64,000 nt of DNA from a virus. Taxonomy: Duplodnaviria; Caudoviricetes. The DNA lies in the IMG/VR virus record IMGVR_UViG_3300029288_000063, positions 64,001 to 128,000 of that record; one strand, 5' to 3'. Made by a program: the position numbers and the translations under genes. Shown piece by piece: positions 41,781-59,974 of this stretch; position 1 is the stretch's first letter; each line of letters opens with the position of its first letter. The notes under the pieces were generated by a model. The model was not told the DNA's origin. It did not search any database and was given only the letters and a program-made list of their open reading frames with translations.

Positions 41781-41827
41781 TTTTTTTTCCAGATTTTTGT
41801 TGCACCCTCGATGCTTGGTTGTATAAT
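41781..41827 (+). promoter_or_regulatory. promoter of RNA operon 1
   Basis: TTTTTTCCAGATTTTTG-TTGCAC-N16-TATAAT; near copy at 59691. Confidence 0.75.
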
Positions 41828-41877
41828 CTGTTTGAAATCGCCCATTGTGAGGGCGAACTTGTAGTGGAGAAAACAAA

Positions 41878-42073
41878 GTGCTTACTTTCCTGACCACCAC
41901 ATCATCGAACGGATTCTCGATGTCCCTCAACTGCGGTAATAAGCGCAGTCAGAGGCAAGGGCATATTACGTGCAAAATGCCCGGTGGTGGAAAGACGGAG
42001 ACCTGACGTAGTAGAGGGTTCTCATAAATGTCTTCCCGCCGCCGGAGCTTAAAAGTTCCGGCGGTTTTGTTTT
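41878..42073 (+). promoter_or_regulatory. leader ORF (41878-42006) with antiterminator/terminator attenuator
   Basis: GGAG SD; 41981-41996 is complementary to 42030-42045; hairpin 42038-42065 and T tract. Confidence 0.65.
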
Positions 42074-42084
42074 GGGGGTGTGTC

Positions 42085-42264
42085 ATGCGGGAGTATGTTT
42101 TCACTGTTCGGGTTCGCCTTGAGGCGTTTGATGATGTAGAGGTTCGTCAACGTCTTGAAGAAGTTCGTAAGGCGGCATCCGGCGAAGTGGTAGAGGGAAT
42201 GAGTAGCGAGGTGTCCTTGCAAGAGGTTTTCAAAAACAAGGCTCCGAGGAAGTTGGTTCTTTAG
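42085..42264 (+). CDS. small hypothetical protein
   Basis: GGGGGTG SD-like site. Confidence 0.5.
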   Translation: MREYVFTVRVRLEAFDDVEVRQRLEEVRKAASGEVVEGMSSEVSLQEVFKNKAPRKLVL

Positions 42265-42328
42265 TCGCGGTGAGGTTTGGTTCGGGTGGTTGCGGTCCGC
42301 GCAGCGATAACCGTCCGAAAGAAAACTA

Positions 42329-42366
42329 TACGGGCAAAGTTCCCGTGGATGGTCTTTGACAATCGA
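42329..42366 (+). promoter_or_regulatory. boxB/boxA-like antitermination site
   Basis: Hairpin ACGGG-CAAAGTT-CCCGT then GGTCTTTGACAATCGA; repeated at 59937-59974. Confidence 0.65.
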
Positions 42367-42454
42367 AGGAAAGTAGTGTACGCCGAAAAAAGCCCCCACG
42401 GGAAGGGGGCGTGATTGGCTATTCCCCCTTCCCGTGTTTTTTCTGTTTTGAACT

Positions 42455-42529
42455 GGGCCGGTAGCACAGTGGTAGTGCAGCGGATTCTTAATCCGAAGGT
42501 CGAGGGTTCAAATCCCTCCCAGCCCACCA
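42455..42529 (+). tRNA. tRNA-Lys(CTT)
   Basis: Cloverleaf, CCA. Confidence 0.9.
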
Positions 42530-42532
42530 AAC

Positions 42533-42608
42533 GGACGCGTAGCTCAGTAGGCAGAGCATCTGCCTTTTAAGCAGGTGGTCGTGGGTTCGATTCCCGCCGC
42601 GTCTACCA
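42533..42608 (+). tRNA. tRNA-Lys(TTT)
   Basis: Cloverleaf, CCA. Confidence 0.92.
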
Positions 42609-42611
42609 AAT

Positions 42612-42688
42612 GGGTATGTAGCTCAATTGCGTTGAGCATCCGGTTCTTACCCGGAAGGTTGGAGGTTCGAGTCCTCTCACACCTACCA
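42612..42688 (+). tRNA. tRNA-Lys(CTT), divergent
   Basis: TCCGG-TTCTTAC-CCGGA, CCA. Confidence 0.8.
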
Positions 42689-42689
42689 T

Positions 42690-42763
42690 TGGCGAGTCAT
42701 ATAATGGTATTATGCGCGGTTGTTACCCGCGTCATGGGGGTTCGACACCCTCCTCGCCAGCCA
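42690..42763 (+). tRNA. tRNA-Asn(GTT), divergent
   Basis: CGCGG-TTGTTAC-CCGCG, CCA. Confidence 0.8.
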
Positions 42764-42777
42764 TTTTTTTGACGCAT

Positions 42778-42854
42778 CCGGTGGTAGCTCAGTTGGTAGA
42801 GCATCTCTCTGATAAGGAGAAGGTTCGAAGGTTCAAGTCCTTCTCACCGGACCA
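42778..42854 (+). tRNA. tRNA-Ile(GAT)
   Basis: Cloverleaf, CCA. Confidence 0.9.
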
Positions 42855-42857
42855 AAT

Positions 42858-42933
42858 GTGCCCGTAGCACAACGGATAAGTGTATAAGGCTACGAACCTT
42901 AAGATGGGGGTTCAATTCCCTCCGGGCATACCA
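42858..42933 (+). tRNA. tRNA-Arg(ACG)
   Basis: Cloverleaf, CCA. Confidence 0.9.
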
Positions 42934-42985
42934 TTTTGAAAATCAAAGTCGCGAGACTTGTATAATAGTAACGATGGGTTTTTAT

Positions 42986-43094
42986 CAGCACGCTTCAGAC
43001 ATGGGTTACTTCTTTTCTCATACAAAAGACCTGACGGTTCGACTCCGTCGTTGGGTGGCCCCGGTAACGTCGCCTGTGTCGCTTTTTGGTGCTG
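42986..43094 (+). ncRNA. Y RNA-like ncRNA
   Basis: CAGCAC-GCTTCA-GACATGGG-TTACTTC ... T arm ... CCTGTGTC-GCTTTTTG-GTGCTG. Confidence 0.7.
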
Positions 43095-43106
43095 GTTTTT
43101 CGGTTT

Positions 43107-43247
43107 GCGTCACACTTCAGGATGGACATACTTCTGACGCTTAATAGCCGGCTGCGGGTTCGATTCCCGTCGGTCAACTTCGGTTGGCTGTTGCTCATGG
43201 TTGAGCCGTTTGTTCGGTTGAGCCGTTCGTTCGACTTTTGGTGACGC
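43107..43247 (+). ncRNA. Y RNA-like ncRNA with permuted tRNA domain
   Basis: Shared terminal module; T arm, UUCG-closed acceptor-like stem, D arm. Confidence 0.75.
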
Positions 43248-43258
43248 TTTTGTATTGC

Positions 43259-43332
43259 GACGGAGGAGTTGGGTTCGAGTCCCGACCGGAAGCCCATACG
43301 GGATTCCGTGGCGTAACAGGCAGCGTGCCGTC
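43259..43332 (+). ncRNA. stand-alone permuted tRNA-like element
   Basis: GACGG/CCGTC closing stem, T arm GGGTTCGAGTCCC, looped acceptor stem, D-like arm. Confidence 0.55.
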
Positions 43333-43345
43333 ATCTTGTTTTTTT

Positions 43346-43505
43346 CCACACGCTTCAGCGATGGGTTACTTCCATGCTAAGGACGAGGTCGCAGGTTCGA
43401 ATCCTGCTCCCCCAACCCTTGCCCCTGTGATTCTGCGGGGGTATGGGCTGGGGGATGGCTCAGCGGTAGAGCGCGTAAACTAGCCTGTTGCGACTTTTGG
43501 TGTGG
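43346..43505 (+). ncRNA. Y RNA-like ncRNA with permuted tRNA domain
   Basis: Shared module; GCAGGTTCGAATCCTGC precedes GGCTCAGCGGTAGAGC. Confidence 0.8.
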
Positions 43506-43508
43506 ATT

Positions 43509-43697
43509 TTATATTCTGTAGGCGATGTGGTGTCCGAGGCGTCGGAAGTATGATGCCATGCCGCAGACCGACTTTCTTGTGTCGAGGTCGAAGATTTCGG
43601 CGAGGAGGTCGAGGCTTTCGTTTGGAAACCATTCTGCGAAGATGGCGATTTCGTTTTGGTTCCATGTTGCGTGTTTGGTGCGTATTGCTGTTGCCAT
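43509..43697 (-). CDS. small hypothetical protein (possible HTH)
   Basis: AAGGAG SD on the minus strand; only convincing minus-strand gene. Confidence 0.55.
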   Translation of the reverse strand: MATAIRTKHATWNQNEIAIFAEWFPNESLDLLAEIFDLDTRKSVCGMASYFRRLGHHIAYRI

Positions 43698-43775
43698 GAT
43701 ATTCTCCTTGAAAGGTGTGAGTTTCAGTATTTTATCCTACCATGTGTGTTTTGTAAAATATCTTGCTAAAATAAT

Positions 43776-43990
43776 GCCTCGGTGGCCTAACGGATAAGAC
43801 ACGACCCTCATGTCCTCGTAGCACAACGGATAGTGCATGCGGCTCCGAACCGCAAAATCCATGTTCGATTCATGGCGAGGATACCATTTTGTGGTATGGT
43901 TTCACGGTAAAGGAGTTCTCGTGAGAAGTCGTCCGTCTAGTGCAACTGCTGTAGGTCGTCATGTAGGTTCGATTTCTATCCGGGGTCCCA
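43776..43990 (+). pseudogene. split tRNA-Arg relic (5' half 43776-43809, 3' half 43953-43990) enclosing tRNA-Arg(CCG)
   Basis: GCCTCGG/CCGGGGT acceptor and CGACC/GGTCG anticodon strands pair. Confidence 0.7.
43812..43886 (+). tRNA. tRNA-Arg(CCG), nested replacement
   Basis: Cloverleaf, CCA. Confidence 0.9.
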
Positions 43991-44581
43991 AAAAAAGATT
44001 CGAAGAAGGTTCCAGTTTTTTCAAATATCCTCGATAGTGTGGTGTAGAATAGAACGAAAGGATTTTGACAAGCTACTGCGGTGTAAGTGCCGCCTCGGGT
44101 TGTGAAAAGGTCGGTCCAATCAACCGACCCAAGCGAACGGTTCGAGTCCGTCCAAGTTGGCAAGTAAAGTCGGCTGATTACCGAAAACACTTGTCGGGTT
44201 GGGTTCCCTCGGGTGAGGGCGAAATCGCCAAACCGACTGTTTTGTTCTTTGAAAACCACCGACAATTCGCCTAATGGGTTACGTCATCGGTGCCACCATC
44301 ACTGATGTACGTGTAAAACGCATAAGGCATCCCTAGTGAGTTGTCAACCGAGTCTTGTATGGTCGGCCGTTATATGGGATAGGTGGGTTTCATCGTTGTC
44401 GGTATACGATGAATTTAAGATTGGTGCCTCGTGGGATGTACGTTTGGCGCAAAATCGGGGTCTGCGGTTCGAGTCCGCAGTCGAAGAACCCGGAAACGGG
44501 AAAGGAATACCCCGGTGGGTGTAGCGGAGACAAATAGCCGGTAGCCAGCGTGGCGAACAAGCATCCCGTTTTGAAGTTTTT

Positions 44582-44647
44582 TTCGCACGCTTCTGTTGTG
44601 GGTTACTTCCTTTTGACGAAAATACCCATAACAACTTTTGGTGCGAA
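44582..44647 (+). ncRNA. Y RNA-like ncRNA, minimal form
   Basis: TTCGCAC-GCTTC-TGTTGTGGGT-TACTTC...ACCCATAACA-ACTTTTG-GTGCGAA. Confidence 0.7.
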
Positions 44648-45071
44648 TGTTCTTTGAAAACCACCGATGCACGGAAATAGCGTGTAGGAGCGACTCGGTC
44701 GACCCCCGTCGATTATGTTGCTTTGCCCCCAGTACCCCAAGTTACATGCTGAGCTGTGCGTCAACCGTGTCCTTGGTGTTGCGTCCCGCCCTTCGTGACG
44801 CCAAATGATAGGTGGGGTTCCTCGGTGGTCGGTGTGCCGGGGAGTTTTTTTTGAGTTCTTTGAAATCTGCTCTTGGACTGTAGTAGGAAGAACCAGCGAC
44901 ATCAATGAGAGGTCAATGCCGAACATGTCGTGGTGTAATGTAGCATAGCCACCATTGGGTGGAAGGTTCTTGTCGAGTCTTGACGAACAACGGCTTCCGA
45001 AAACACAGGGACATATCGCGGTCGCATGCAACCGTTGATGTGCTTGCCAAGGGTAGATTTCAGGGAATTTT

Positions 45072-45136
45072 ATTCGCACTCTTCAGTGACGGGATACTTC
45101 TCATACAAGCGACCTGTTGCGATTCTTGGTGCGAAT
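45072..45136 (+). ncRNA. Y RNA-like ncRNA, minimal form
   Basis: ATTCGCAC-TCTTCA-GTGACGGG-ATACTTC...CCTGTTGC-GATTCTTG-GTGCGAAT. Confidence 0.7.
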
Positions 45137-45186
45137 TTTGATTTCCCACGCTGACGGGTTGGCGTCCAGTGGGGTTTTGCAAACAT

Positions 45187-45263
45187 ACGCCCGTAGCTCA
45201 GTTGGATAGAGCGTCGGTTTCCTAAACCGAAGGGCAGCAGTTCAAATCTGCTCGGGTGTACCA
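45187..45263 (+). tRNA. tRNA-Arg(CCT)
   Basis: Cloverleaf, CCA. Confidence 0.9.
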
Positions 45264-45272
45264 AAATTTAAT

Positions 45273-45300
45273 GCGCCAGTAGCTCAGTGGTAGAGCACAA
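45273..45300 (+). pseudogene. orphan tRNA 5' fragment (Gly-like)
   Basis: GCGCCAG-TA-GCTCAGTGGTAGAGC-ACAA, no T arm. Confidence 0.55.
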
Positions 45301-45326
45301 TAGAGGCGCTGTTTGGCTTAATAAAA

Positions 45327-45401
45327 GCGGGCATAGCCTAGTGGTCAGGCACCACCTTGCCAAGGTGGGTCACGCCGGTTCGACTCCGGTTGCCCGCTCC
45401 A
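45327..45401 (+). tRNA. tRNA-Gly(GCC)
   Basis: Cloverleaf, CCA. Confidence 0.92.
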
Positions 45402-45423
45402 ATATTGAAGTTTTTTGAAGCAT

Positions 45424-45496
45424 GGTGCATGAACCCAAATGGCGCGGGAACTGGCTGTGAACCAGTTGTTAGCGGGTTCGAATCCCGTCTTGCACC
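45424..45496 (+). tRNA. tRNA-His(GTG), CCA not fully encoded
   Basis: G-1:C73 pair, CT-GTG-AA loop, T arm. Confidence 0.8.
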
Positions 45497-45620
45497 CGGT
45501 CGACAAGGAGAAGCCTCCACGTGGCTCGGCTGGTAATCACCTAACGGTGAGCCAATGTCTCCTGATTTATTATGCCGGTTATACAATCGAGGAAAGGTTG
45601 TGACGTATTGCACCCCAAAT

Positions 45621-45696
45621 TCCCCTCTAGCTCAATCGGTAGAGCGTCTGGCTGTTAACCAGTAGGTTGCAGGTTCGAGTCCTGCGGGGGGAGCCA
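45621..45696 (+). tRNA. tRNA-Asn(GTT)
   Basis: Cloverleaf, CCA. Confidence 0.92.
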
Positions 45697-45699
45697 AAT

Positions 45700-45791
45700 G
45701 GAACGGTGGCAGAGAGGCTTATTGCACCGGTTTGCTAAATCGGAGGGCATCGTAAGGTGTCCCGTGGGTTCGAATCCCACCCGTTCCTCCA
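45700..45791 (+). tRNA. tRNA-Ser(GCT)
   Basis: Long variable arm, CCA. Confidence 0.92.
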
Positions 45792-45923
45792 TTCGATTCG
45801 GTGTATAATGAGTTGTCAGTCTCATGGAAACAAAAGACTCCAAGATAGTCTGTGATGCCGGGAGGAGTGCTTGGAGATGACAAAAACAAAGAAGCGAAAG
45901 TATGAAAGTTACCTTGAGTTTTT

Positions 45924-46013
45924 GGAGGGTTGGTCGAGTCTGGTTTATGGCACTGGTTTTGAAAACCAGAGACGTGAAAGCGTCCGGGGGTTCGAATCCC
46001 TCACCCTCCGCCA
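45924..46013 (+). tRNA. tRNA-Ser(TGA)
   Basis: Long variable arm, CCA. Confidence 0.92.
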
Positions 46014-46034
46014 AGTTTAAGGGGTTCTCAAACC

Positions 46035-46346
46035 ATGAGTGATAAAAAAGACCTTGGTGTTTTCGAAGACGGAGAGTTGGTTCCGATTCAGCCTGTTTGT
46101 AGTGGGCTGACAAGGTGTTGTCGGTGCAATGTGGAGTTGACGCCCGAGAACAATTCTGGTTGGGAGGTTTTTGTTTCGCCAACAAGAACAGCACCAGTTT
46201 GTAAAGAGTGCAATGTTGAGAGATGTAGCGTGTGCGGTGCCCCGATGACAAAAGAAAACTGGGGTGCCTTCTTGAAGGTCTCCGACGATACTCTTATGAT
46301 GTTTTGCAAGGGTTGCTACGAGGTTGAAAAAAGATTTAAGGGGTGA
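46035..46346 (+). CDS. double Zn-finger repeat protein
   Basis: Two CxxC..T.EN..W..CxxC units. Confidence 0.6.
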   Translation: MSDKKDLGVFEDGELVPIQPVCSGLTRCCRCNVELTPENNSGWEVFVSPTRTAPVCKECNVERCSVCGAPMTKENWGAFLKVSDDTLMMFCKGCYEVEKRFKG

Positions 46347-46433
46347 CCGTTGTTTTGGGGTTCGTTGTAACACCTCTCACAAAAAAAAAGAATCAAACCC
46401 CACTTTTAGGAGAACCAATGAGCGTAAATTGAA

Positions 46434-46509
46434 GGACCTATAGCTCAGTGGTCAGAGCGGGCGGCTCATAACCGTCTGGTCGAAGGTTCAATCCCTTCTG
46501 GGTCCACCA
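46434..46509 (+). tRNA. tRNA-Ile2/Met(CAT)
   Basis: Cloverleaf with Ile2-like body, CCA. Confidence 0.88.
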
Positions 46510-46529
46510 ATAATCAGAGAGGGTTTTTC

Positions 46530-46853
46530 GTGTGGTGGCATTATGCGTTGTGGGTTCCGACTGTCGTTGTGTATTACGTTGGCTATTCGTGGCTGAGTAA
46601 GCAAAACAACGATATAGGCGGCAAGTGGTTCTGGTTCATGTTCGCCTATGGCGCGGCTTGCCCGCTTTGGCTGATTGTTTCCCGCATATCGAAAAATCTT
46701 TTATTTGATGGCGTCTTATATGACAACCTGATGTTTTTGACGTATGTCGGGGCGATGATATTTCTCGGGGCGCATGCGAGGATGACCGCGCACCAGTGGG
46801 TTGGACTTGGGTTAGTGGTGTTGGGTTCGGTCTTGCTTCGCTGGGAATTGTGA
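46530..46853 (+). CDS. small four-TM DMT/SMR-like membrane protein
   Basis: Hydrophobic; QWVGLGLVVLG end. Confidence 0.6.
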   Translation: MWWHYALWVPTVVVYYVGYSWLSKQNNDIGGKWFWFMFAYGAACPLWLIVSRISKNLLFDGVLYDNLMFLTYVGAMIFLGAHARMTAHQWVGLGLVVLGSVLLRWEL

Positions 46854-46858
46854 AATCT

Positions 46859-46946
46859 GGAGACGTGTGATAATGGTATTCAGCCTGCCTCGAAAGCAGG
46901 TGCTCCAGCAATGGAGTTGGGGGTTCGAGTCCCTCCGTCTCCGCCA
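46859..46946 (+). tRNA. tRNA-Ser(CGA)
   Basis: Long variable arm, CCA. Confidence 0.88.
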
Positions 46947-46953
46947 AACACAA

Positions 46954-47042
46954 GGAGAGGTTGCCTAATTGGTAAGGCACCGCATTGGAAGTGCGGCGTG
47001 GTGATGAGTCATGTGCAGGTTCGAACCCTGTCCTCTCCGCCA
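46954..47042 (+). tRNA. tRNA-Ser(GGA)
   Basis: Long variable arm, CCA. Confidence 0.9.
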
Positions 47043-47202
47043 AATTTATAATCGCCTATGGTCGGGCGTTGGGGGTGCCATTAGAAACGCCAGCATATGG
47101 CTGTGCAAGCGTTTCTGACGGTGTCTCGGTTTGACAGTACCAAGCAGCCTCCCAGTGGCGTCAGACGGGCACGGTGCGAATCGTGGCGAATGCTTGGGAC
47201 CT

Positions 47203-47277
47203 GCCGACAAAGCATAGATGGCGATGCACCGGTTTCGTAAACCGGAGAGGTGGGTTCAAGTCCCTCTGTCGGCTCCA
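47203..47277 (+). tRNA. tRNA-Thr(CGT)
   Basis: Cloverleaf, CCA. Confidence 0.88.
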
Positions 47278-47329
47278 TATTTATGTAATAGTTGTTGTTG
47301 TATAGAGGTGGTTTTCAACGGTGAAAAAT

Positions 47330-47404
47330 GCCTCCGTAGCACAGCGGATAGTGCACCGGATTTCTAATCCGGCTACAGGGGTTCGATTCCCTTCGGGGGT
47401 GCCA
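47330..47404 (+). tRNA. tRNA-Arg(TCT)
   Basis: Cloverleaf, CCA. Confidence 0.92.
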
Positions 47405-47492
47405 AAAATGATTGATGCAACTTTGCGTCATTGGTTCTGTTCCTCCTTCATGTGCGCGGGCGGTGAGCGCCCGCCTTTGGAGGAGGCATACC

Positions 47493-47804
47493 ATGCAAGA
47501 GAAGGTGAAAGAAAAAAGTCGTCGTAGGCGGAATGATGTTGCTCGGATGAAAGAGCGTGCGCGTCGTGTTGTTTGTGGGAACGAACCGGCTCGTGGGTTT
47601 GTAATGTATAACCTCGATGGTTCGTTGGTTTCCCGCGAGGAGTGGGTTGAGGATTGTGCCGTTCGTTGCGCGAATAATATGGCAAAATGTTCGTGTGCAA
47701 TGTGTGGAAATCCTCGCCATCGGAAGTATAGTAAAGGGTCGGAACGTTTAACCATGCAGGAACGGCGACAACTACAAGACGGGGACTTATACGAGGAAGA
47801 ATGA
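47493..47804 (+). CDS. hypothetical protein with CSCxMCGNPR motif
   Basis: GGAGGAGG SD. Confidence 0.7.
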   Translation: MQEKVKEKSRRRRNDVARMKERARRVVCGNEPARGFVMYNLDGSLVSREEWVEDCAVRCANNMAKCSCAMCGNPRHRKYSKGSERLTMQERRQLQDGDLYEEE

Positions 47805-48025
47805 TGTCTACCGAAAAGAAAGATCGTCACGCCCCGCCGCCATTAGGGTTGATTGCGTTGGTCGTGTTGGTGCCGATTGTAATTCTTATCGGAATTGCAG
47901 GGTTTGTCGGGTGGCTGTCTGTCCGTCTTGGTTTTGTGGAATGGTATCTTGGTCCGGTTGTCGGTATCGCTGTGGATGCCATTCTGTTGGGGATTCTTTG
48001 GTTGATGAAAAAGATGCGGGCGTAG
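47801..48025 (+). CDS. small membrane protein
   Basis: Two hydrophobic segments. Confidence 0.55.
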   Translation: MMSTEKKDRHAPPPLGLIALVVLVPIVILIGIAGFVGWLSVRLGFVEWYLGPVVGIAVDAILLGILWLMKKMRA

Positions 48026-48089
48026 CTCAATGGCAGAGTGCCAGCTTCCCAAGCTGGTTATGAGGGTTCGATTCCCTTCGCCTGCTCCA
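48016..48089 (+). tRNA. tRNA-Gly(CCC)
   Basis: Cloverleaf, CCA. Confidence 0.92.
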
Positions 48090-48109
48090 AATTTGGCGGG
48101 GGGCGTATT

Positions 48110-48325
48110 ATGGATTCGATTCAAGCCGCTATTTCACGTTTGTTTGTTTTGGTAGAAAAAGCAGAATCCAACCAAGAAGACATTTCGGTAAGCCGATATG
48201 TATGTCGGTTGTGCGGTGAAAGTCGACAGTCACTTTGCGAGTGTATAGATCACATTGTTGGTCTGCATTCTGAAAGGCTGAATGAGGTTCGCAACGCTGT
48301 AGATGTGATATGTAAGCGGGTGTAG
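48110..48325 (+). CDS. small C2H2-like Zn-finger protein
   Basis: CRLC...HIVGLH. Confidence 0.45.
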   Translation: MDSIQAAISRLFVLVEKAESNQEDISVSRYVCRLCGESRQSLCECIDHIVGLHSERLNEVRNAVDVICKRV

Positions 48326-48373
48326 CTCAATGGTAGAGCGCCAGCCGTATTAGAAAGGATTTGGGATAGATTA

Positions 48374-48447
48374 GCGCCTATGGTGTAGTGGCCGCATCTT
48401 TGCCTTCCAAGCAAAGGGTCCGTGTTCAAATCACGGTAGGCGCTCCA
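48374..48447 (+). tRNA. tRNA-Gly(TCC), nested replacement
   Basis: TTTGC-CTTCCAA-GCAAA, CCA. Confidence 0.9.
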
Positions 48448-48522
48448 AACCAATAAATTCTTTATATTCGACCCGCTGTTTTGGAACCCGTAATTGGGTT
48501 CCAAAACAGGAGGGGGGTCGAC

Positions 48523-49185
48523 ATGAAGAGTGATGAACGACAAGAGGCAAGAAAACTCAGGGGACAGGGATTATCTGTCAAAGAAATAACAAGGAGAGTC
48601 GGAGTCGCAAAGTCGTCAGTGAGTCGCTGGGTCAGAGACATCGAGCTTACTGACGAACAAAAAATGAACCTCCGACCATGCACAGTTGCTTTTGGAATCA
48701 ATCGATTAAGGTATTTTTCTGAACTTCGGGACTCATACAGAGAAGTAGGGAGAGACCAAGCCAAGAAAAACAACCTTTTGCATGCAATGGGGTGCATGCT
48801 CTACTGGGCAGAAGGATGGCACACAAACAATCGGAACTGTATGAAGTTTTCAAACTCAAGTGTTCCGATGATGAAATTGTTTCTGAAGTTCCTGCGGAAT
48901 GAGATGTCTGTAAAAGATAATGATGTCATCATCAAGATACATTGTTATACAGACAAAAGGAGCGCAAGCGACATTGAATCGCACTGGCTTAACGAACTCG
49001 GTCTTCCGCAAAACTGTTTGAGGAAAACGGTGGCAGACAAAAGGCCGGGGTGTACGCAGAACAAACGCAACAACATTCTGGAATGGGGAACATGCCATCT
49101 GATTATACATGACGTGAGAGTCGTTCAAGGCATCTACGGCGCAATCGAGGAGTATGGGAAATTCAGGAATGGTGCATGGGATTGA
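48523..49185 (+). CDS. HTH + LAGLIDADG-like endonuclease
   Basis: GLSVKEITRRVGVAKSSVSRW; GCMLYWAEG, FSNS; A-rich composition. Confidence 0.7.
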   Translation: MKSDERQEARKLRGQGLSVKEITRRVGVAKSSVSRWVRDIELTDEQKMNLRPCTVAFGINRLRYFSELRDSYREVGRDQAKKNNLLHAMGCMLYWAEGWHTNNRNCMKFSNSSVPMMKLFLKFLRNEMSVKDNDVIIKIHCYTDKRSASDIESHWLNELGLPQNCLRKTVADKRPGCTQNKRNNILEWGTCHLIIHDVRVVQGIYGAIEEYGKFRNGAWD

Positions 49186-49247
49186 GCCAAGCTGGTTATG
49201 AGGGTTCGATTCCCTTCACCCGCTCCAAATTTGGAAGGTGGTGAGAC

Positions 49248-49475
49248 GTGGACAGGGAACACTTAAAATCTTTGATCGAATCACTGAAATCCATCAACCT
49301 CGACGAGTTTGACAGTATATCTGACGATGAGCTTCAAAAGAGGCTTGATAAGGCTCGTGCGTGTAATCCGGAAGGAATGGTGGCGTACGAGAAAATGTTG
49401 AGCGAAATTGACATTGATGAACTCGGACAGGACATCGGTTGTGAGTTGAGGGACGACGTGACAGATATGGTTTGA
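49248..49475 (+). CDS. hypothetical acidic protein
   Basis: GGAAGGTGG SD-like site. Confidence 0.5.
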   Translation: MDREHLKSLIESLKSINLDEFDSISDDELQKRLDKARACNPEGMVAYEKMLSEIDIDELGQDIGCELRDDVTDMV

Positions 49476-49708
49476 GTTTTTTTGGGGAAAGTGAGGGGGC
49501 AACAAGTGTCGGCACAGGAAGGTGTTTGTTGTGTTGTGGCGTTTCCGCATTCCGCAGAGTGTAAGGGTTGTGGGAAGTCGTTCAAAAAGAGAAGTCGTTT
49601 TCATCTTTATTGCAACAGATGTAATAAAAAGGTTTCACGAACGCCTCGGTTTGGATGTGGGACGTTTACAAGACGCCATTCTTGTCCTGATGAAGAAATT
49701 AAATAAAC

Positions 49709-49972: not shown

Positions 49973-49985
49973 TAAAGGGACGGTA

Positions 49986-51433: not shown

Positions 51434-51506
51434 ACAAACAGAAACGCAGACCAAGTGACCAATTCTTTTATGGTCTCCATTCGAATAGCGTAGTCGGCTA
51501 TTTTGG

Positions 51507-52199
51507 ATGGAGGACAAGAGAATGTTCAAGTGCGAAAAGTGTGGTAAGGAGTTTGACAACGAGAGGTCGTTTAGTGGGCACAAAGGTGCCTGCGGGAAGA
51601 AAAAAGAGTGTCCTGTTTGTTGTCGGATGATAAGTGTTTCGAATTTTATTGCGCATGTGAAGTCGCATGAAAACGACAAGGCTTGTCCAGCGTGTGGTGG
51701 GGTGGTTCATGGTCGTGGACGCTTTTGCTCGAAAAGTTGTGCTGCCTCGGTGAACAATGTTGGTGTTGTTCGCAATGGGGTAAAAAAGAAAGACGCGTTT
51801 TGTTTAACGTGTGGAAAGATTTTGGTTCGACGTCAGGTTAAATATTGTTCAAATCATTGCCAACAAGAAAAGAAATATAGAGAATACATAGGTCGGTGGT
51901 TGATTGGAAAAGAAACAGGCAACATGGATGGTTGTATGAATATATCAAATTATGTTCGACGTTGGCTATACGAAACGAGGGGGAAAAGGTGTGAGGGGTG
52001 CGGGTGGGCGAGAAAACATTCGATGGACGGTTCGATTCCGATTCAAGTCGAGCACATTGATGGTAATGCTCAAAACACGACACCTGAAAACTTGAGGATA
52101 TTGTGTCCGAGTTGCCATAGTTTAACGTTGACCTTTGGAAACAGAAACAAGGGAAAGGGTCGATCAAAGAGGCGATCAAAGAGGTGTTCAAAAGAGTAA
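51507..52199 (+). CDS. Zn-finger HNH endonuclease
   Basis: EHIDGN..N..PENLRILCPSCH; several CxxC. Confidence 0.9.
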   Translation: MEDKRMFKCEKCGKEFDNERSFSGHKGACGKKKECPVCCRMISVSNFIAHVKSHENDKACPACGGVVHGRGRFCSKSCAASVNNVGVVRNGVKKKDAFCLTCGKILVRRQVKYCSNHCQQEKKYREYIGRWLIGKETGNMDGCMNISNYVRRWLYETRGKRCEGCGWARKHSMDGSIPIQVEHIDGNAQNTTPENLRILCPSCHSLTLTFGNRNKGKGRSKRRSKRCSKE

Positions 52200-52309
52200 G
52201 CAGGCGGTTGGGGGTTCGAGTCCCTCTGCTGGCTCCATAAAGAAGCTACTTTCCTTCATGAAAACGCCGATATGGCTCAGGAGGTACTCTACCTACTTGG
52301 ACAACAAAT

Positions 52310-52383
52310 GCTGGCATAGTTCAGTGGTAAAACAGATTCTTGGTAAGAATCAGACGAGGGTTCGATTCCCCCTGCCAGCTCCA
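52310..52383 (+). tRNA. tRNA-Thr(GGT)
   Basis: Cloverleaf, CCA; same family as 51360-51433. Confidence 0.88.
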
Positions 52384-52517
52384 AATTGGACTGTTATGAA
52401 AAGATTGCATCATGACCCGGAAAACGGTATAAGTAAAAGGCAGTCGTTGTATGCCAAGAAGACCAGAGCTTGGCTCAGGGGTGTGATGTGTGTTTTGAAA
52501 AAAAAAGGAGAAAATGA

Positions 52518-53021
52518 ATGAGGGTTATTGACGCTCCCGAGTCGTTGTCAGATTTACCGCGCCCGGCAGTGTTCTTGGCGGGCGGGATTACCGGGTGTCC
52601 GGATTGGCAAAATAAGGTTATCGCAGGTCTGTCGGACCTTGACTTTGGGTGTGTCCTGAACCCGCGTCGGGCGAATTTTCCGATTCACGACCCCAATGCG
52701 GCGCGGGAACAAATCACTTGGGAGTTCAACGCCTTGCATAAGGCTGATTTGTTCTCGATGTGGTTTTGCAACACGGAGTCAGACCTACCGATTTGTTTTT
52801 ACGAGTTGGGTCGGTATGTCGCGATTCGGCAGGTAAACGTGCAGCTTGACCGTGTTCTTATTGGTGTTGAGACGGGGTTTAAGCGGTCACAGGATGTGTA
52901 TATTCAAATGGAATTGGTAAACAAGGGAATTTCGGACAACATTTTCTCATCGTTGGACGATTATATAGTGGCGCTTCGTGAGTTGGTGTTGAACTTTGTC
53001 TCGAACACAGTGTTCGAGTAA
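52518..53021 (+). CDS. nucleoside 2-deoxyribosyltransferase-like protein
   Basis: VFLAGGI..CPDWQ, LNPRR, QITWE, YELG. Confidence 0.8.
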   Translation: MRVIDAPESLSDLPRPAVFLAGGITGCPDWQNKVIAGLSDLDFGCVLNPRRANFPIHDPNAAREQITWEFNALHKADLFSMWFCNTESDLPICFYELGRYVAIRQVNVQLDRVLIGVETGFKRSQDVYIQMELVNKGISDNIFSSLDDYIVALRELVLNFVSNTVFE

Positions 53022-53110
53022 ACTGGAGGGTTCTACCATGTTTAGCCTTTTGTGTTCGGAAGTCTTGGTGTTTCGGTGTTGAACTAAAACCAGAGAAAGG
53101 AGGATAACCG

Positions 53111-53620
53111 ATGAAGGTATTGCTTTTGAACCATTCGGAAGAAATTTTGGACGTGATCTCGTGGCAGCGTGCGGTGACGTTGTTGTTTTCGGGAAAGGCC
53201 CGGAAGCCGCATGGCTATGATGATGAGTACGAAATCAAGACCGTGTCCGGTGTTTTCCGGCTTCCGTCGGCTATTGTCCTCGTCTCGTATGTTCGGATTC
53301 CGTACAAGAAGGCGGCAGTCAACAAGGAAAACGTGTTGAAGCGTGACAAGTTCACCTGTCAATACTGTGGTAAGCATTTGACGATGTCATCCGGCACAAT
53401 CGACCACGTTCACCCGACATCTCGTGGCGGGCGGCATGAGTGGAAGAACGTTGTTGCTGCGTGCGCAAAGTGCAACAATAAGAAGGCGAATCAGCGTCCG
53501 GAAGAAGCCGGGATGGTTTTGTTGTCTCATCCGTCCGTGCCGACCCGCAACCTGATTGTTTTGACGGGTATAAATCCCCATACTCTTGGGACGTGGACGA
53601 GGTGGGTTGACCTTGGTTAA
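53111..53620 (+). CDS. HNH endonuclease (McrA-like)
   Basis: RDKFTCQYCG, TIDHVHP.SRGG..W.N..AC.KCN. Confidence 0.9.
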   Translation: MKVLLLNHSEEILDVISWQRAVTLLFSGKARKPHGYDDEYEIKTVSGVFRLPSAIVLVSYVRIPYKKAAVNKENVLKRDKFTCQYCGKHLTMSSGTIDHVHPTSRGGRHEWKNVVAACAKCNNKKANQRPEEAGMVLLSHPSVPTRNLIVLTGINPHTLGTWTRWVDLG

Positions 53621-53662
53621 CGTGTGTGTGGTTTCGTAGATCAATAACACCCGTCGTGCCGT

Positions 53663-54019
53663 GTGGCGACGGGTGTTGTTTTAGGAGCCATCATGATTTT
53701 TTCGTCTCCAATAACCTGTCCACCCGAAACGACTGGTTCGGTTTCATACACTGTTTATTCTGGAGGGACAACATCGACGACCGAAACGACGTTTGTGGCG
53801 AGCAGTGATTGTTCGTGTTCGGCGGGTTGTTCGCGTTGTGCGGATTCGCATGAATATGTTCTGACTGTCTTAATGCCAGTTGAGGGTTATGAGGTTCCAG
53901 TCTTACCGAAAACAAAACACGATTCGTATAAAGGTCATCGTGCGGGGCATCCACGTAAAGTGCGGTCGTGGAACAAGATACACAAGCCATTCGGTGGTTA
54001 TGGATTCTTCCGTGGTTAA
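53663..54019 (+). CDS. hypothetical protein (start uncertain)
   Basis: ORF only. Confidence 0.35.
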   Translation: MATGVVLGAIMIFSSPITCPPETTGSVSYTVYSGGTTSTTETTFVASSDCSCSAGCSRCADSHEYVLTVLMPVEGYEVPVLPKTKHDSYKGHRAGHPRKVRSWNKIHKPFGGYGFFRG

Positions 54020-54037
54020 ATGCGAAGAATCCATCTC

Positions 54038-54111
54038 GGGGCGTGCGTCCCGGTTGACCGGATGGGTCTTATAAACTCGTTGGCAGGGTTCAACTCCTTG
54101 ACGCCCTACCA
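54038..54111 (+). tRNA. tRNA-Ile(TAT)
   Basis: CT-TAT-AA loop, T arm, A73 and CCA; atypical D arm. Confidence 0.75.
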
Positions 54112-54187
54112 AAAAAACAGGCGGATAACCTCCGCCTTTTATTTTTTGAATTACTGACTCTCTGTAGAAACGTAATGGAGAGATCAG

Positions 54188-55251: not shown

Positions 55252-55473
55252 ATGATTGACAACCACACTGTTGGTTCTGTGAAACGCATTTCGCCGGTGT
55301 TGAATAGGAATGCTATTGTAAAGAGTGGTGGAGTCCTCCAACAGTCGGAGGAGGTTGGTTATGTTGTAAGGGAGAAAATCGGCGTTGGAGTATATAACCC
55401 ATCCGCGTTAAATCTGTTCTTAAAAAAAGAGTCTGAAGGGGCGTTGCCTGTTTATGATGAAGACCCGAATTGA
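55252..55473 (+). CDS. hypothetical protein
   Basis: GAGG SD. Confidence 0.45.
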   Translation: MIDNHTVGSVKRISPVLNRNAIVKSGGVLQQSEEVGYVVREKIGVGVYNPSALNLFLKKESEGALPVYDEDPN

Positions 55474-57641
55474 AATTCTGTTATGAACTTGATATAGGAA
55501 AGCTGAATATGATCAGGAGAGTTCTTTTTTCGATAGTAGTGGTTGCTGCTATTTGCACTGTTGTTTTAGTGACGATATCAATGACTGTCGTCAAAAATGG
55601 ATTCTCTTCTGTAGATGAGGATCGGGTGATTGAATCCTCACACCTTGTTCGTTCTATCGTTCAAAGAGAATTGCTCGGTTTGGCCAGCACTGTTGGGGAT
55701 TGGTCACGGTGGGATGATGCTTGGGAGTATGTTAATCAAGACGGCAAAGATAGGTCTTTTGTCGAACAAAATATTGATCTCGCTTCACTATTACAGTTGC
55801 GCGTGTTTTATGTCATGTTTCTTGGACGGGATGGACATCCTATTTCCGAATTTGTTGTTCGTGACGGGGACATCTATGAGGTTCCGAATTCCGAGCTGTC
55901 CTTGGCGTCTATAGATGGTTTTCAATCGGCATCTGAACGGTGCATGCGCGGCGAGGTTGTGCAGGGTTTGTCTTGGATAGGAGACAAGATGTCCTTGGTG
56001 GCAATGTCGTCTATCTCTAAGTCGGACGGTTCGTGTGTCGGAAACGGTATGTTGGTTTTCTGTCGTGATGCGTCCGGTATGGTTTCGGAAATTAACAAGA
56101 CGTTTGAGTCGTTTTCGATATCCGGTGATTGTTCAAGCGAGATAATGAACGACCTCGTTATCAATACCTCCGATTCGAGCGTGTCTGGGACTTTTCTTGT
56201 TCCCAGTGTTGAGGGAGGGAAAAACTATCTCGCAAGCCTATCTGTTCCGAGCTTTTCCGAGTTGCAGGGCAACCGCATTATCCTTGTTTTCGTTTTTGCG
56301 AGTATAGGGTTTGTTTTCGTTGTTTCGATTGCGCTGTGGAAGGTTGTTGATAGGATGGTATTATCGAGGCTTTCTGTCACAATGTCCGCTGTCAAAGAGA
56401 TTGGTCGTTCTGCCGATGTGACAAAGAAGCTGCCCGGTGGTGAATGTTCTGATGAGTTTGGCGTTTTCATTCACAACTTGAACGATATGCTTGAATCTAT
56501 TCGCGTGTCAGAAGAAAAGACAAAAGAATCAGAAAATGCTTTAAAACGTTCTGAGCGAGTAACACTTCTTGGCAAATTCGCGGAGGGTATTGCGCACGAC
56601 CTGAATAACCTTTTGGCAATTATTAAGGGCTATGCGGACTCGTTGAAGTTTGCCGGTTCACTTTCTGAATCTCTCGTGCTGTGTGACAACATAAGTTCCA
56701 CAGTCGGAGAATGTACGGCTTTGATTGGTAAGATTTTGTCGTTTTCGAGGCGTGGTAATATCAACTTTGTGCCGGTTGATCTGCACCCATTGTTGGGTGA
56801 TATATGTTCGATGTTTCATTACGCCATAGAGAAAAAGAGTGTATGTTTTGAATCGGTTATGGGGGCGGAGAACAGTGTGGTTCATGGGAACAAGTCTGAA
56901 ATTCAAAATGCCATATTGAGTCTGTTGGTTAATGCCCGAGAGGCTGTTTCTGATAATGGTCATATCTTTATCAAATCAAGAAACGTTATCGACCCTGACG
57001 GTTTGTCTTCTGGTGAATATGTGGAGGTGGAGGTGAGTGATGACGGTGTTGGAATTCCTCCGTCGATTATGAAAAATCTTTTTGTTCCATTTCAAACAAC
57101 AAAGGAATATGGAAAGGGTCTTGGACTTTCTTTTGTTCATGGGACGGCGGAAAGACACAAAGGAAGGGTAAGTGTTTCCAGTATTCCCGGTAAAACATCT
57201 GTGCTGCTCTTGATTCCGTGCTCTGAAAAAAAGGCTAGTGTTCCGGAGAAAAACAGCGTTATGAGACATAAGACTCCGTGTGTTGTGCATGTCGAAGATG
57301 AGGCGGCCATTCGTGAAATCGTTAAGTTGCAGCTTGAGGATGATGGGTTTTGTGTGAAATCTTTTGCGCATGGTGATGGTGCGATTAGTTATGTTCGTGA
57401 ACACAAGCAAGATGTTGACTTTGCGATTCTCGACTTCGCGGTTCCTCCTGTGGATGGTGTTTACATCTTTCATGAGATGAGAAAGATTATACCAACTCTT
57501 CCAGTTGCGTTTATGACTGGTTTTTGTGACGCTAGGGCTGAAGACTTGCGTGCCGAGGGGGCGGTCGGTGTTTTCGAGAAACCAATCAATTTCAAGTCAG
57601 TTCTTAGTCTTCTGAACGATATACTTGGAAAGCGTGGGTAG
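55470..57641 (+). CDS. membrane hybrid histidine kinase (CHASE4-HAMP-HisKA-HATPase-REC)
   Basis: DWSRWDD, two TMs, DEFG, AHDLNN, DDGVG, GLGL, VEDE. Confidence 0.9.
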   Translation: MKFCYELDIGKLNMIRRVLFSIVVVAAICTVVLVTISMTVVKNGFSSVDEDRVIESSHLVRSIVQRELLGLASTVGDWSRWDDAWEYVNQDGKDRSFVEQNIDLASLLQLRVFYVMFLGRDGHPISEFVVRDGDIYEVPNSELSLASIDGFQSASERCMRGEVVQGLSWIGDKMSLVAMSSISKSDGSCVGNGMLVFCRDASGMVSEINKTFESFSISGDCSSEIMNDLVINTSDSSVSGTFLVPSVEGGKNYLASLSVPSFSELQGNRIILVFVFASIGFVFVVSIALWKVVDRMVLSRLSVTMSAVKEIGRSADVTKKLPGGECSDEFGVFIHNLNDMLESIRVSEEKTKESENALKRSERVTLLGKFAEGIAHDLNNLLAIIKGYADSLKFAGSLSESLVLCDNISSTVGECTALIGKILSFSRRGNINFVPVDLHPLLGDICSMFHYAIEKKSVCFESVMGAENSVVHGNKSEIQNAILSLLVNAREAVSDNGHIFIKSRNVIDPDGLSSGEYVEVEVSDDGVGIPPSIMKNLFVPFQTTKEYGKGLGLSFVHGTAERHKGRVSVSSIPGKTSVLLLIPCSEKKASVPEKNSVMRHKTPCVVHVEDEAAIREIVKLQLEDDGFCVKSFAHGDGAISYVREHKQDVDFAILDFAVPPVDGVYIFHEMRKIIPTLPVAFMTGFCDARAEDLRAEGAVGVFEKPINFKSVLSLLNDILGKRG

Positions 57642-57706
57642 CTCAATGGCAGAGCGAGGGCTTCTAAAGCCCTGCGTTATGGGTTCGAGTCCCATCCTAC
57701 GCACCA
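57632..57706 (+). tRNA. amber suppressor tRNA (CTA)
   Basis: AGGGC-TT-CTA-AA-GCCCT, canonical D and T arms, CCA. Confidence 0.85.
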
Positions 57707-57835
57707 CAAATAGTGACGGGGTCGGAAATTCCGACCCCGTTTGGTTTGATATATTTTTTTTATACCGTGCGTACAGTGTGAAGTTGTTTTTTTTGAGATG
57801 GTTGGTTTCAAAAGACCAGAGTAGGAGGATTTGAC

Positions 57836-58060
57836 ATGGCATATCGCACGTTGGATGGAGCTGGACGTGACCGTGCCGAGGCCGTTCTTGAGGAAACCAC
57901 CTTCAAGGGTGGTATTCCGGTTCGTGCGGACGGAGCTGTCCGTGTGATCAGGAAGTATGGCCACGGTGTTGTTCGCACCTCGGGTGCAACGTCCCTGAGT
58001 GGCGCAAACGCTGGTGTTGTTCGCAACTACAATGACAACGGAAAGAACTTCGGGAACTAG
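57836..58060 (+). CDS. small hypothetical protein
   Basis: AGGAGG SD; followed by a terminator hairpin at about 58095-58130. Confidence 0.6.
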   Translation: MAYRTLDGAGRDRAEAVLEETTFKGGIPVRADGAVRVIRKYGHGVVRTSGATSLSGANAGVVRNYNDNGKNFGN

Positions 58061-58185
58061 GTTTTCCGTTTTCCGCCGCCGCGCCTGCAATTGGCACCCC
58101 CGTCTTTGGCGGGGGTGTTTTTATTTTTTTCTTATTGCAATACCTTTTCGCGTGTGTATAGTATTCGCAAATGGAGGATTTGACC

Positions 58186-58512
58186 ATGTTGTAGGTGTCG
58201 CCGAAAAACTTCGTTCTTGTTTGTTCTGACCTACCCCTTGCACATCAGATTGTTCAGGCTGCCCATGCGGCGTATGAAGCCGGAACCACATCCAATATAA
58301 AATCGCCTACCCAACAACGCCTTGTCCTGTGCACTGTCGCGGATGAGGCGTGTCTTTTTTTCGCCTGTGAAAAACTCGAACGGGCGGGAATCAATTTCGT
58401 TTTATTTCGTGAGCCAGACATGGGGAACCGTGCAACGGCTTTGTGTACCGAGGCGCTTAATGACAAGCGTGGTCGGGTGCTGTCGTCGTTTCGTTTGTGG
58501 AAGGAGGGATGA
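58186..58512 (+). CDS. Pth2-like protein with in-frame TAG at codon 3
   Basis: GGAGG-N8-ATG TTG TAG GTG; QIVQAAHAA, FREPDMG..TALC. Confidence 0.7.
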
Positions 58513-58781
58513 ATATGCGCCGGGTCAAGAATCCGTATGGAGACCGTCGCGCTCCTGATGGTGATTTTGCCCACGGGTGGAGGTGGGTGAGAAAAGGCGG
58601 AAGGGTTAAGGTTGCCGGTCTGTGGTATACCGCCCCAAAGCTGGGTGAGATTGTTGGTGAGTACGTCAAAGTCTCCATGAATGACTACTGGCGTTCTGAG
58701 GTGATTATTGAGCGTGGTGCGATTGGTTGTGTTGGTTTTTTCTGCTATGCGAAGCCGGAGAGCGAACATGACGACGAATGA
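58509..58781 (+). CDS. hypothetical protein
   Basis: Coupled ORF. Confidence 0.5.
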   Translation: MNMRRVKNPYGDRRAPDGDFAHGWRWVRKGGRVKVAGLWYTAPKLGEIVGEYVKVSMNDYWRSEVIIERGAIGCVGFFCYAKPESEHDDE

Positions 58782-59118
58782 GCTTATTGATGCGTTGCGG
58801 TCAGCCGACCAGTCAGGCAAGTTGCAGGTGGTTGTTGGTAATGTGCCGATATATACTGTTGACCGGCTTCCTGCGTATTATGACGGGCGGATGCAAGAGC
58901 TGATTCAAGACCACAGTCGTGACCCGTATTACAACATCGTTGGTTTTCGGGTGAAGAGAAGTGGTCAGAAAATCAACTTGTGCACGATAGATTTTGAGAC
59001 GGTACTCTGGGACAACCCGGACGCCGAGGTTGACCTGTCAGACCTGTCCGAAAGGGAACGGTTTGAATGGGAGGCGCGGGTTGCCGAGGTGATTGTTCAA
59101 GCGAAATCTGAGTCCTGA
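58768..59118 (+). CDS. hypothetical phage protein
   Basis: MTT.ELI..L...D.SG; PAYYDG. Confidence 0.6.
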   Translation: MTTNELIDALRSADQSGKLQVVVGNVPIYTVDRLPAYYDGRMQELIQDHSRDPYYNIVGFRVKRSGQKINLCTIDFETVLWDNPDAEVDLSDLSERERFEWEARVAEVIVQAKSES

Positions 59119-59231
59119 TTGTGTGAAAGGAGAAAGCCATGAAGTAGCTGTGTCCCGCGAAGCCTCCGTAATAGGTGTTTGTGTTCTGGTGCTTTTCTGT
59201 GAAACTACAAACCCTATTTTGGAGAAAAATC

Positions 59232-59558
59232 ATGAGCGCAATTGAGAATGTGGTGACTTTTGAAGAACTTCAACGTTCGAAGTGGTTGGAAAAGCGTGCT
59301 GAGTTTCGGGAGTTGATTAAGAGTCTGGCGGCAGAGCAGTCGGCTGAAAAGAAGCTGTTGCGTATGCCGCATGGGTCGATTCCCGAGCAGGAGTATCCGG
59401 CCTATGGTGGCGGGAAGATGACCCTGAAAGGGACTGCCCGCGCCTCGCGTCTGATGTATTCCTGTTGGAGTCGTGCTAGGTCGATTAGCGGATTGCTGGT
59501 TGATTATAAGAAGTTCCTTGGCAAGCCGTATGACATGCACGAAAGCAAAAAGAAGTGA
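59232..59558 (+). CDS. hypothetical protein
   Basis: GGAG SD; hairpin terminator follows. Confidence 0.6.
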   Translation: MSAIENVVTFEELQRSKWLEKRAEFRELIKSLAAEQSAEKKLLRMPHGSIPEQEYPAYGGGKMTLKGTARASRLMYSCWSRARSISGLLVDYKKFLGKPYDMHESKKK

Positions 59559-59690
59559 TTCGCCATGTACCCGCCCGTGAAAAGGCGGGTACATTTTTAT
59601 TATTGGCTTGTTGTTGGAAGAGAATGTCTCTTGGTGCACTTTGTTCGTTGGGAATAAATGCTGTTGTGATGTTTTCGAAAAAATATATTG

Positions 59691-59736
59691 ATTTTTTCCA
59701 GATTTTTGTTGCGCCTACGATGTTTGAATGTATAGT
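59691..59736 (+). promoter_or_regulatory. promoter of RNA operon 2
   Basis: TTTTTTCCAGATTTTTG-TTGCGC-N16-TATAGT. Confidence 0.75.
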
Positions 59737-59773
59737 GGGTCATGTGTGGTAAATTACTTTTATGGAGTCTGTC

Positions 59774-59929
59774 ATGAATAAGTTTGCATTGCTTCCAGTC
59801 CTGCCGGTGTTTGATGCGGCGGCCTATGAATGGCTGACGGCGGGTAGGGAGCTTTGCGGATAAAACAGATTTCAACAAATCCGTAAAACACCTGACCCCG
59901 CCGAGAAGTTCCGGCGGGTTTTTTGTTTT
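59774..59929 (+). promoter_or_regulatory. leader ORF (59774-59863) with antiterminator/terminator attenuator
   Basis: GGAG SD; CGGCGGGTAGG in the leader pairs with the terminator 5' arm CCTGACCCCGCCG. Confidence 0.7.
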
Positions 59930-59936
59930 GCGGTGA

Positions 59937-59974
59937 TGCGGGCATAGTTCCTGCAAGTGGTCTTTGACAATCGA
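59937..59974 (+). promoter_or_regulatory. boxB/boxA-like antitermination site
   Basis: TGCGGG-CATAGTT-CCTGCA then GGTCTTTGACAATCGA. Confidence 0.65.

Follow-up and report, generated by a model that had tools for sequence, protein, structure and literature searches.

Two tRNA arrays of a tailed phage lie behind candidate transcription attenuators whose leader ORFs list the codons of their own tRNAs

Why phages carry large sets of transfer RNA (tRNA) genes has been an open question for more than 50 years (PMC10264068). The virus record IMGVR_UViG_3300029288_000063 (Duplodnaviria; Caudoviricetes), a linear sequence of 253,102 bases that is 75% complete, raises the question anew, with 57 tRNA calls and a transfer-messenger RNA (tmRNA); the sample in which this DNA is best represented is a landfill metagenome. 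The 64,000-nucleotide (nt) stretch analyzed here (the window; bases 64,001-128,000 of the record) contains two tRNA arrays, each headed by a promoter, a short open reading frame (ORF) and a terminator, and one may ask what these headers do. We propose, with a probability of roughly 80%, that a ribosome-mediated transcription attenuator gates each array and that its leader ORF serves as a checklist of the codons read by that array's own tRNAs, making the leader a feedback sensor of tRNA supply. The arrays and the elements that begin them are as follows, in window coordinates.

42455 to 54111, plus strand: tRNA array 1 (Lys, Asn, Ile, Arg, Gly, His, Ser, Met, Thr, Cys, Gln), with Y-RNA-like RNAs and interspersed ORFs
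59997 to 64000, plus strand: tRNA array 2 (Tyr, Ala, Val, Glu, Leu, Phe, Asp, Trp, Pro), with an RNase P-like RNA and Y-RNA-like RNAs
41783 to 41827, plus strand: promoter 1, T-rich upstream block in common with promoter 2, -35 TTGCAC (41800), -10 TATAAT (41822)
41838 to 41856, plus strand: 5′ hairpin of leader 1, a near copy of which heads the leader-2 orthologue of the related contig L233
41878 to 42006, plus strand: leader ORF 1, GTG start, 42 codons, GGAG at 41866
42038 to 42073, plus strand: terminator 1, 12-bp stem and U tract
59692 to 59736, plus strand: promoter 2, shared upstream block, -35 TTGCGC (59709), -10 TATAGT (59731)
59774 to 59863, plus strand: leader ORF 2, ATG start, 29 codons, GGAG at 59764
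59897 to 59926, plus strand: terminator 2, seven G-C pairs and U tract

In both cassettes, as in an attenuator, the promoter is separated from the terminator by a short ORF that has a ribosome-binding site, and the two ORFs led by a Shine-Dalgarno sequence that an earlier reading of this DNA (the original prediction) had described are present at the lengths it gave. Together the arrays split the 20 amino acids 11/9, and the leaders follow this split. Leader 1 draws 34 of its 41 codons from the amino acids of array 1, with all 11 present (p = 3e-5), while leader 2 draws 21 of 28 from those of array 2, with all nine present (p = 4e-3); codons 4-21 of leader 2 form an unbroken run of 18 array-2 codons. 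When the whole leaders, with no chosen window, were scored against every possible 11/9 partition, the real tRNA split was the unique top score among 167,960. The correspondence extends to individual codons, which cover 21 of the 24 anticodon classes of array 1 (p = 0.007 versus synonymous resampling) and 16 of the 20 of array 2 (p = 0.08). Codons outside the set lie mostly in the first few positions and in the antiterminator strand. As in known attenuators, the putative control codons are tied to the function of the downstream genes. The original prediction had taken the leaders to be unrelated in sequence and to act as generic stall sensors; this had to be given up, as each leader draws on the amino acids and codons of the array behind it, and the arrays should therefore respond separately to shortage of their own tRNAs.

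The same attenuator might instead have been selected to sense amino-acid starvation, by way of uncharged tRNA, and not the loss or scarcity of the tRNA molecules themselves; the switch would then be as proposed and only its trigger would differ. All classical leader attenuators sense charging, and sequence alone cannot separate an uncharged tRNA from a missing one. Extra tRNA does not relieve a lack of amino acid, however, and leader 1 uses a broader range of isoacceptor codons than its peptide would require, as the 21 of 24 classes indicate. The Ro60 protein, Y-like RNAs, Pth2 and tmRNA of this phage would also fit tRNA damage and ribosome rescue, and we consider selection for starvation sensing quite unlikely.

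The match between leader and array recurs in related phages. Seven records with a capsid protein 70-93% identical (G002, G004, G012, G013, G020, G026, G027) and two found through a boxA search (G010, G029) contain 17 blocks with a promoter, short ORF and terminator in front, giving 19 leaders with the two described here; the leader was taken as the longest ORF between promoter and terminator. All 19 contain every non-Met amino acid of their own block. For the 17 leader-block pairs with blocks of at most 14 amino acids, the true pairing scored 52.5 as against 0.3 ± 6.4 under permutation, a value reached by none of 10^6 permutations, and the true assignment came first (of 24, 24, 6 and 2) in every multi-block genome, among them G020 and G026 with four blocks apiece and G029 with three. 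G004 and G010 have one mixed array each, and all 20 amino acids occur in their leaders of 40 and 53 codons (background 0.005 and 0.04). In the leader core 80% of the codons match the block, compared with 38% at codons 2-5 and 51% among the final eight, which form the antiterminator, and the gap from stop codon to terminator is 23-47 nt in all leaders. These data bear on a simpler proposal, in which any slowdown of ribosomes opens both arrays together and the content of the leaders is irrelevant. The antiterminator would be released by an elongation stall anywhere in the core, which probably also occurs here as a side effect, and the trn array of Anabaena responds to general translational stress (PMC8421152). 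Such a generic sensor leaves unexplained why, in all 19 cases, the content of a leader follows that of its block and shifts when arrays are re-partitioned, and we regard it as unlikely.

An attenuator also requires a strand that can compete with the terminator, and the following segments were predicted to form the alternative pairs.

41884 to 41907, plus strand: segment 1 of attenuator 1, predicted to be able to pair with the antiterminator strand
41980 to 41998, plus strand: antiterminator strand of attenuator 1, leader codons 35-41, pairing with 42029-42045
59800 to 59806, plus strand: segment 1 of attenuator 2, pairing with 59838-59844
59838 to 59861, plus strand: antiterminator strand of attenuator 2, leader codons 22-29, pairing with 59879-59903

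That the 3′ part of each leader is complementary to the 5′ arm of its terminator had been claimed before, and the claim withstood comparison with shuffled sequences. Duplex 1 reached -31.3 kcal/mol versus -19.5 ± 3.0 for shuffles (p = 0.002), and duplex 2 was significant with the 5′ arm plus 10 nt (p = 0.045) or plus 20 nt (-30.6, p = 0.0025). Five ordinary terminators of the window gave p = 0.17-0.87 in the same test and show no such pairing. Each cassette therefore combines an intrinsic terminator with a predicted, mutually exclusive antiterminator that overlaps the end of the leader. The 12-nt stretch said to be shared by the two terminators was also recovered, and it occurs exactly twice in the genome, only there. 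In the survey of 19 leaders, the antiterminator beat shuffles at p < 0.05 in 10 (Fisher combined 3e-12), and all 10 of these lie within -26 to +13 nt of the stop codon. Leader 2 scored p = 0.054 in that survey, in which the wrong hairpin was picked automatically; the correct one was set by hand separately.

The position of the antiterminator at the leader end implies that a ribosome finishing the leader would block it and favor termination. The reverse has to be weighed, namely that leader translation is needed for readthrough, so that the arrays are made only where their codons can still be decoded or at a set time of infection. The state without a ribosome is ambiguous in co-transcriptional folding, but all significant cases have an antiterminator strand that overlaps the final codons or the stop, and we find opposite polarity or a timing device very improbable. 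In an equilibrium folding model in which the ribosome footprint was blocked codon by codon, the predicted folds likewise fit the classical polarity, with a lagging ribosome giving readthrough and a finishing one giving termination, as in pheL-type attenuation (PMC3082878). The folding of the alternative structures, proposed earlier as a check, predicted a clear switch for leader 2, where the terminator had a probability of 0.97 in the absence of a ribosome, fell to 0.00-0.09 for a ribosome at codons 4-7 and 12-14, and returned to 0.95-0.97 at codons 17-30. For leader 1 the predicted switch was partial, with corresponding values of 0.95 (no ribosome), 0.43-0.72 (codons 4-12) and 0.95-0.99 (codons 34-43). 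With the 3′ arm not yet transcribed, the model put sequestration of the 5′ arm at about 90% until the ribosome reaches codon 33 of leader 1 or codon 18 of leader 2, and at about half or less thereafter. The sequence accordingly supports the leader-dependent attenuation put forward in the original prediction; its broader claim, that stalled translation as such throws the switch, stands only in part, since the terminator is favored at equilibrium without a ribosome and a block of initiation may not open the arrays.

Conservation could be followed for leader 2 in L233, a contig that carries the genes upstream of array 2 and stops inside terminator 2. Its leader (L233:3846-3938) has kept the frame, and it differs by an in-frame 3-nt insertion that adds a Leu codon (an amino acid of the array-2 set), by synonymous changes at Phe and Ala, and by a Leu-to-Pro change that stays within the set. 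The same codon is used at 20 of the 23 shared residues, as against 34/56 and 17/38 in neighboring genes, and, from the alignment and folds, the antiterminator contains two compensatory pair changes (U-A to C-G and A-U to G-C). The 5′ hairpin of the L233 leader resembles that of leader 1 in the present phage, which suggests that both cassettes descend from one by duplication. Patterns derived from the leaders gave only chance matches in viral and metagenome contigs. Contigs of four other runs gave only pieces of low depth, among them two from a groundwater run with zero differences over 59624-59835 and 59847-60001; the leader-2 sequence is thus not an assembly artefact, and no variants were gained.

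Downstream of the terminators, each cassette continues with a hairpin and a boxA, preceded in the first by a further ORF.

42085 to 42264, plus strand: 59-codon ORF between terminator 1 and hairpin/boxA 1
42329 to 42347, plus strand: hairpin before boxA 1, CA(A/T)AGTT loop, a boxB by position only
42351 to 42366, plus strand: boxA 1, ribosomal RNA (rRNA)-operon type
59937 to 59955, plus strand: hairpin before boxA 2, CA(A/T)AGTT loop, a boxB by position only
59959 to 59974, plus strand: boxA 2, rRNA-operon type

All of the elements that the original prediction assigned to a common architecture were found where it placed them, although the layouts of the two cassettes differ because of the 59-codon ORF, which it did not mention. 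The identical 16-nt boxA has exactly two occurrences in the genome. Its 12-mer is the variant that precedes 23S rRNA in Acidobacteriota, Binatia, Myxococcota and others, and it was found upstream of a 23S-type motif in 108 genome stretches, of which at least 91 are true 23S rRNA starts; both phage copies have this rRNA-operon sequence and lie upstream of untranslated RNA. The CA(A/T)AGTT hairpins exist as predicted, but the label boxB found no support: the loop matched at 0 of the 108 rRNA sites and several relatives have no such hairpin. Among viral contigs the combined hairpin and boxA pattern gave 88 matches, none at a tRNA array. Two more boxA-like motifs (44244-44400 and 44649-44848) each head an RNA of 150-190 nt; the ends of these RNAs are shared and complementary, and no Rfam match was obtained.

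In both cassettes, and likewise in G012, G013 and G027, boxA follows the terminator and any leading ORF. It cannot act on a terminator that lies upstream of it, and its part would be to shield the untranslated array, not to govern the switch. This matters for the possibility that small ORFs merely happen to precede ordinary leaky terminators, with readthrough set by boxA and Nus factors or by a phage antiterminator protein. In favor of this, there is a boxA, and neither short ORFs nor GC-rich complementarity is rare; yet boxA is on the wrong side of the terminator, ordinary terminators lack the pairing, the frame and the compensatory changes are conserved, and the partition (1/167,960) and permutation (0/10^6) tests leave chance close to refuted, with a probability that we consider negligible.

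Several observations weigh against gating by codon-matched attenuators. Most leader codons are present only once or twice, without the long runs found in pheL, so the sensitivity of the sensor may be low. At equilibrium, leader 2 does not switch at codons 8-11 or 15-16, and leader 1 switches only partly, its terminator being back at about 0.95 at codons 14-23; stalling deep in the core would have to rely on kinetics outside the model. Until the 3′ arm has been transcribed, the 5′ arm is predicted to be tied up even in the absence of a ribosome (0.89 and 0.81). Nine of the 19 antiterminators do not individually beat shuffles, the search windows and block limits in the relatives were set by eye, and G012 and G013 are not independent of each other. 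Some tRNAs have no leader (the first Met tRNAs of G012, G013 and G006, and the first tRNAs of G027), and Asn is abundant in two G026 leaders, downstream of which no Asn tRNA was found. Finally, no orthologue of leader 1 was found; the 59-codon ORF (no Pfam, PHROG or other homologue) and the ORFs at 59232 and 40989 likewise yielded no homologues, leaving leader 1 without an orthologue for comparison.

On the attenuator reading, RNA synthesis would start at a sigma70-type promoter and a ribosome would translate the leader. With matching charged tRNAs plentiful, it would reach the last codons and cover the antiterminator strand, the terminator would form and the array would stay off. Were any matched tRNA scarce, whether cut, uncharged or titrated, the ribosome would lag in the codon-matched core, the antiterminator would form and transcription would read through. 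The boxA might then load host Nus factors that protect the long, mostly untranslated transcript. The new tRNAs would restore decoding and close the switch, a negative feedback that would operate separately for each half of the amino-acid set.

The pheL, trpL, hisL and multivalent thrL and ilvGMEDA leaders are ribosome-mediated attenuators of amino-acid operons. The cassettes described here resemble them in the promoter, the short leader ORF, the predicted alternative 1:2, 2:3 and 3:4 hairpins, the intrinsic terminator and the relation of control codons to downstream gene function. They differ in that tandem runs of control codons for one to three amino acids, set before biosynthesis or synthetase genes, were not found. 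Instead, 9-11 amino acids (up to 20 in relatives) are listed before tRNA genes, most isoacceptor codons occurring once or twice, so that the product would be the molecule sensed; moreover, the system resides in phage, and the leader is re-written whenever the array is re-partitioned. The trn operon (L-array) of Anabaena is likewise a long tRNA array that is off until translational stress and is linked to RNA repair genes, whereas its control is by the ribbon-helix-helix repressor TrcR at promoter repeats and is not codon-specific (PMC8421152, PMC10272220); neither attenuation nor a leader is mentioned in PMC8421152. T-box riboswitches are also tRNA-responsive terminator/antiterminator leaders, but they bind one uncharged tRNA directly and without translation. 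A T-box or other riboswitch was rejected for both leaders, no such Rfam covariance model matching either. The boxA 12-mer just before untranslated RNA genes recalls rRNA-operon antitermination with NusB/NusE, and a similar role for Nus factors may be supposed; here, unlike there, boxA follows an attenuator and a hairpin that has no counterpart at the rRNA sites. We found no description of leader-peptide attenuation of tRNA genes in the open literature, most subscription papers lying outside the search.

As to the trigger, it could be a tRNA-cutting defence, titration during infection or starvation, and a tRNase defence is plausible. Phage tRNAs are known to replace damaged host tRNAs (PMC11555353; PMC10264068), and the tRNA-Tyr of T5 and SP15 rescues infection from the tRNA-cutting retron Eco7 (PMC11555353). 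The T5-like tRNA regions differ from those described here in that a strong promoter drives the tRNA, and attenuation is not mentioned in either PMC11555353 or PMC10264068. A bolder proposal, to which we give even odds, is a widespread phage counter-defence circuit in which the leaders detect that anticodon nucleases have cut particular host tRNAs and turn on just the block with their replacements; the partition of the arrays would then record the tRNA-targeting defences of the hosts.

The two promoters, which appear sigma70-like from their sequence, had been called near-identical. This applies upstream of -35 and at -10; they differ downstream of -10, and overall 39 of 56 nt are identical. A 21-nt block occurs only at 41783-41803 and 59692-59712 in the 253-kb genome, even with four mismatches allowed. 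The promoters were located by pattern, and a simple promoter scan picked up neither. A pattern search found the same promoter class at 3630, before a unit of a Y-like RNA, tRNA-Met and Ro60, and at 58135, before a Pth2-like gene, and nowhere else in the genome; neither has a leader and terminator. The first of these units (3630-6235; Y-like RNA, CAT tRNA and Ro60, with its TROVE domain) also has a boxA-like motif at its head and amounts to a natural control without an attenuator. A sigma70-family factor is encoded at genome position 144944-145108, outside the window, so the array promoters could be read by either a host or a phage sigma.

Array 1 closes at a terminator at 54119-54137, just after a tRNA-Ile(TAT) at 54038-54111 that itself follows a terminator-like hairpin (53647-53676); leader 1 lacks just three of the array-1 codon classes, and the ATA codon of this tRNA is among them. 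Array 2 runs beyond the window to a distal CAT tRNA and the tmRNA (genome position 134,334), with no terminator found between. Supply of tRNA, Y RNA and RNase P had been placed under both switches. Y-RNA-like RNAs do occur in both arrays, but the RNase P-like RNA (60609-60798, about 190 nt) is in array 2 only, and it scores 31.7 bits against a gathering score of 84. Gly, Thr and Trp tRNAs (48324-49228, 51318-52238 and 61980-62685) are apparently split at the anticodon loop by inserts of 0.6-0.85 kb, each of which contains a helix-turn-helix or HNH gene (the HNH at 62061 by eye) as well as a further tRNA of the same amino-acid specificity that is intact. At 50917-50990 lies an initiator-like CAT tRNA with an enlarged D arm, below ARAGORN and Rfam gathering detection.

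Elsewhere in the window are genes for the major head protein (36501-37361) and the terminase (18975-20807). The nearest cultured match of the terminase is 28% identical, and the boxA variant is common to many phyla. A CUA suppressor tRNA at 57632 lies outside both arrays, its start overlapped by the stop codon of a CHASE4 histidine kinase/response regulator hybrid (55470-57706), in an order similar to that in L233 and in L236. Just 3′ of this tRNA, the Pth2-like gene (58186-58512; L233:853-1186) begins in both phages with ATG, one codon and TAG in frame with the remaining ORF, and in L233 no start codon directly follows the TAG; it is possibly gated by amber readthrough. A conserved mini-ORF (59139-59171; L233:2916-2948) before the gene at 59232 reads Met, one codon, TAG, a few codons and Pro-Pro-stop, and may be a second amber-dependent sensor. 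In L233 it ends in Arg-Ala-Pro-Pro, which we take to resemble RAPP arrest motifs.

If the leaders act as proposed, the tRNA arrays would be an on-demand reserve and not a constitutive supplement to codon usage. Each leader would predict which tRNA loss opens which array, Tyr opening array 2 only and His or Gln opening array 1 only, and the cassettes would provide compact natural reporters for tRNA-cutting defence systems. Attenuation, familiar from amino-acid genes, would then take in tRNA genes too and form a closed feedback loop.

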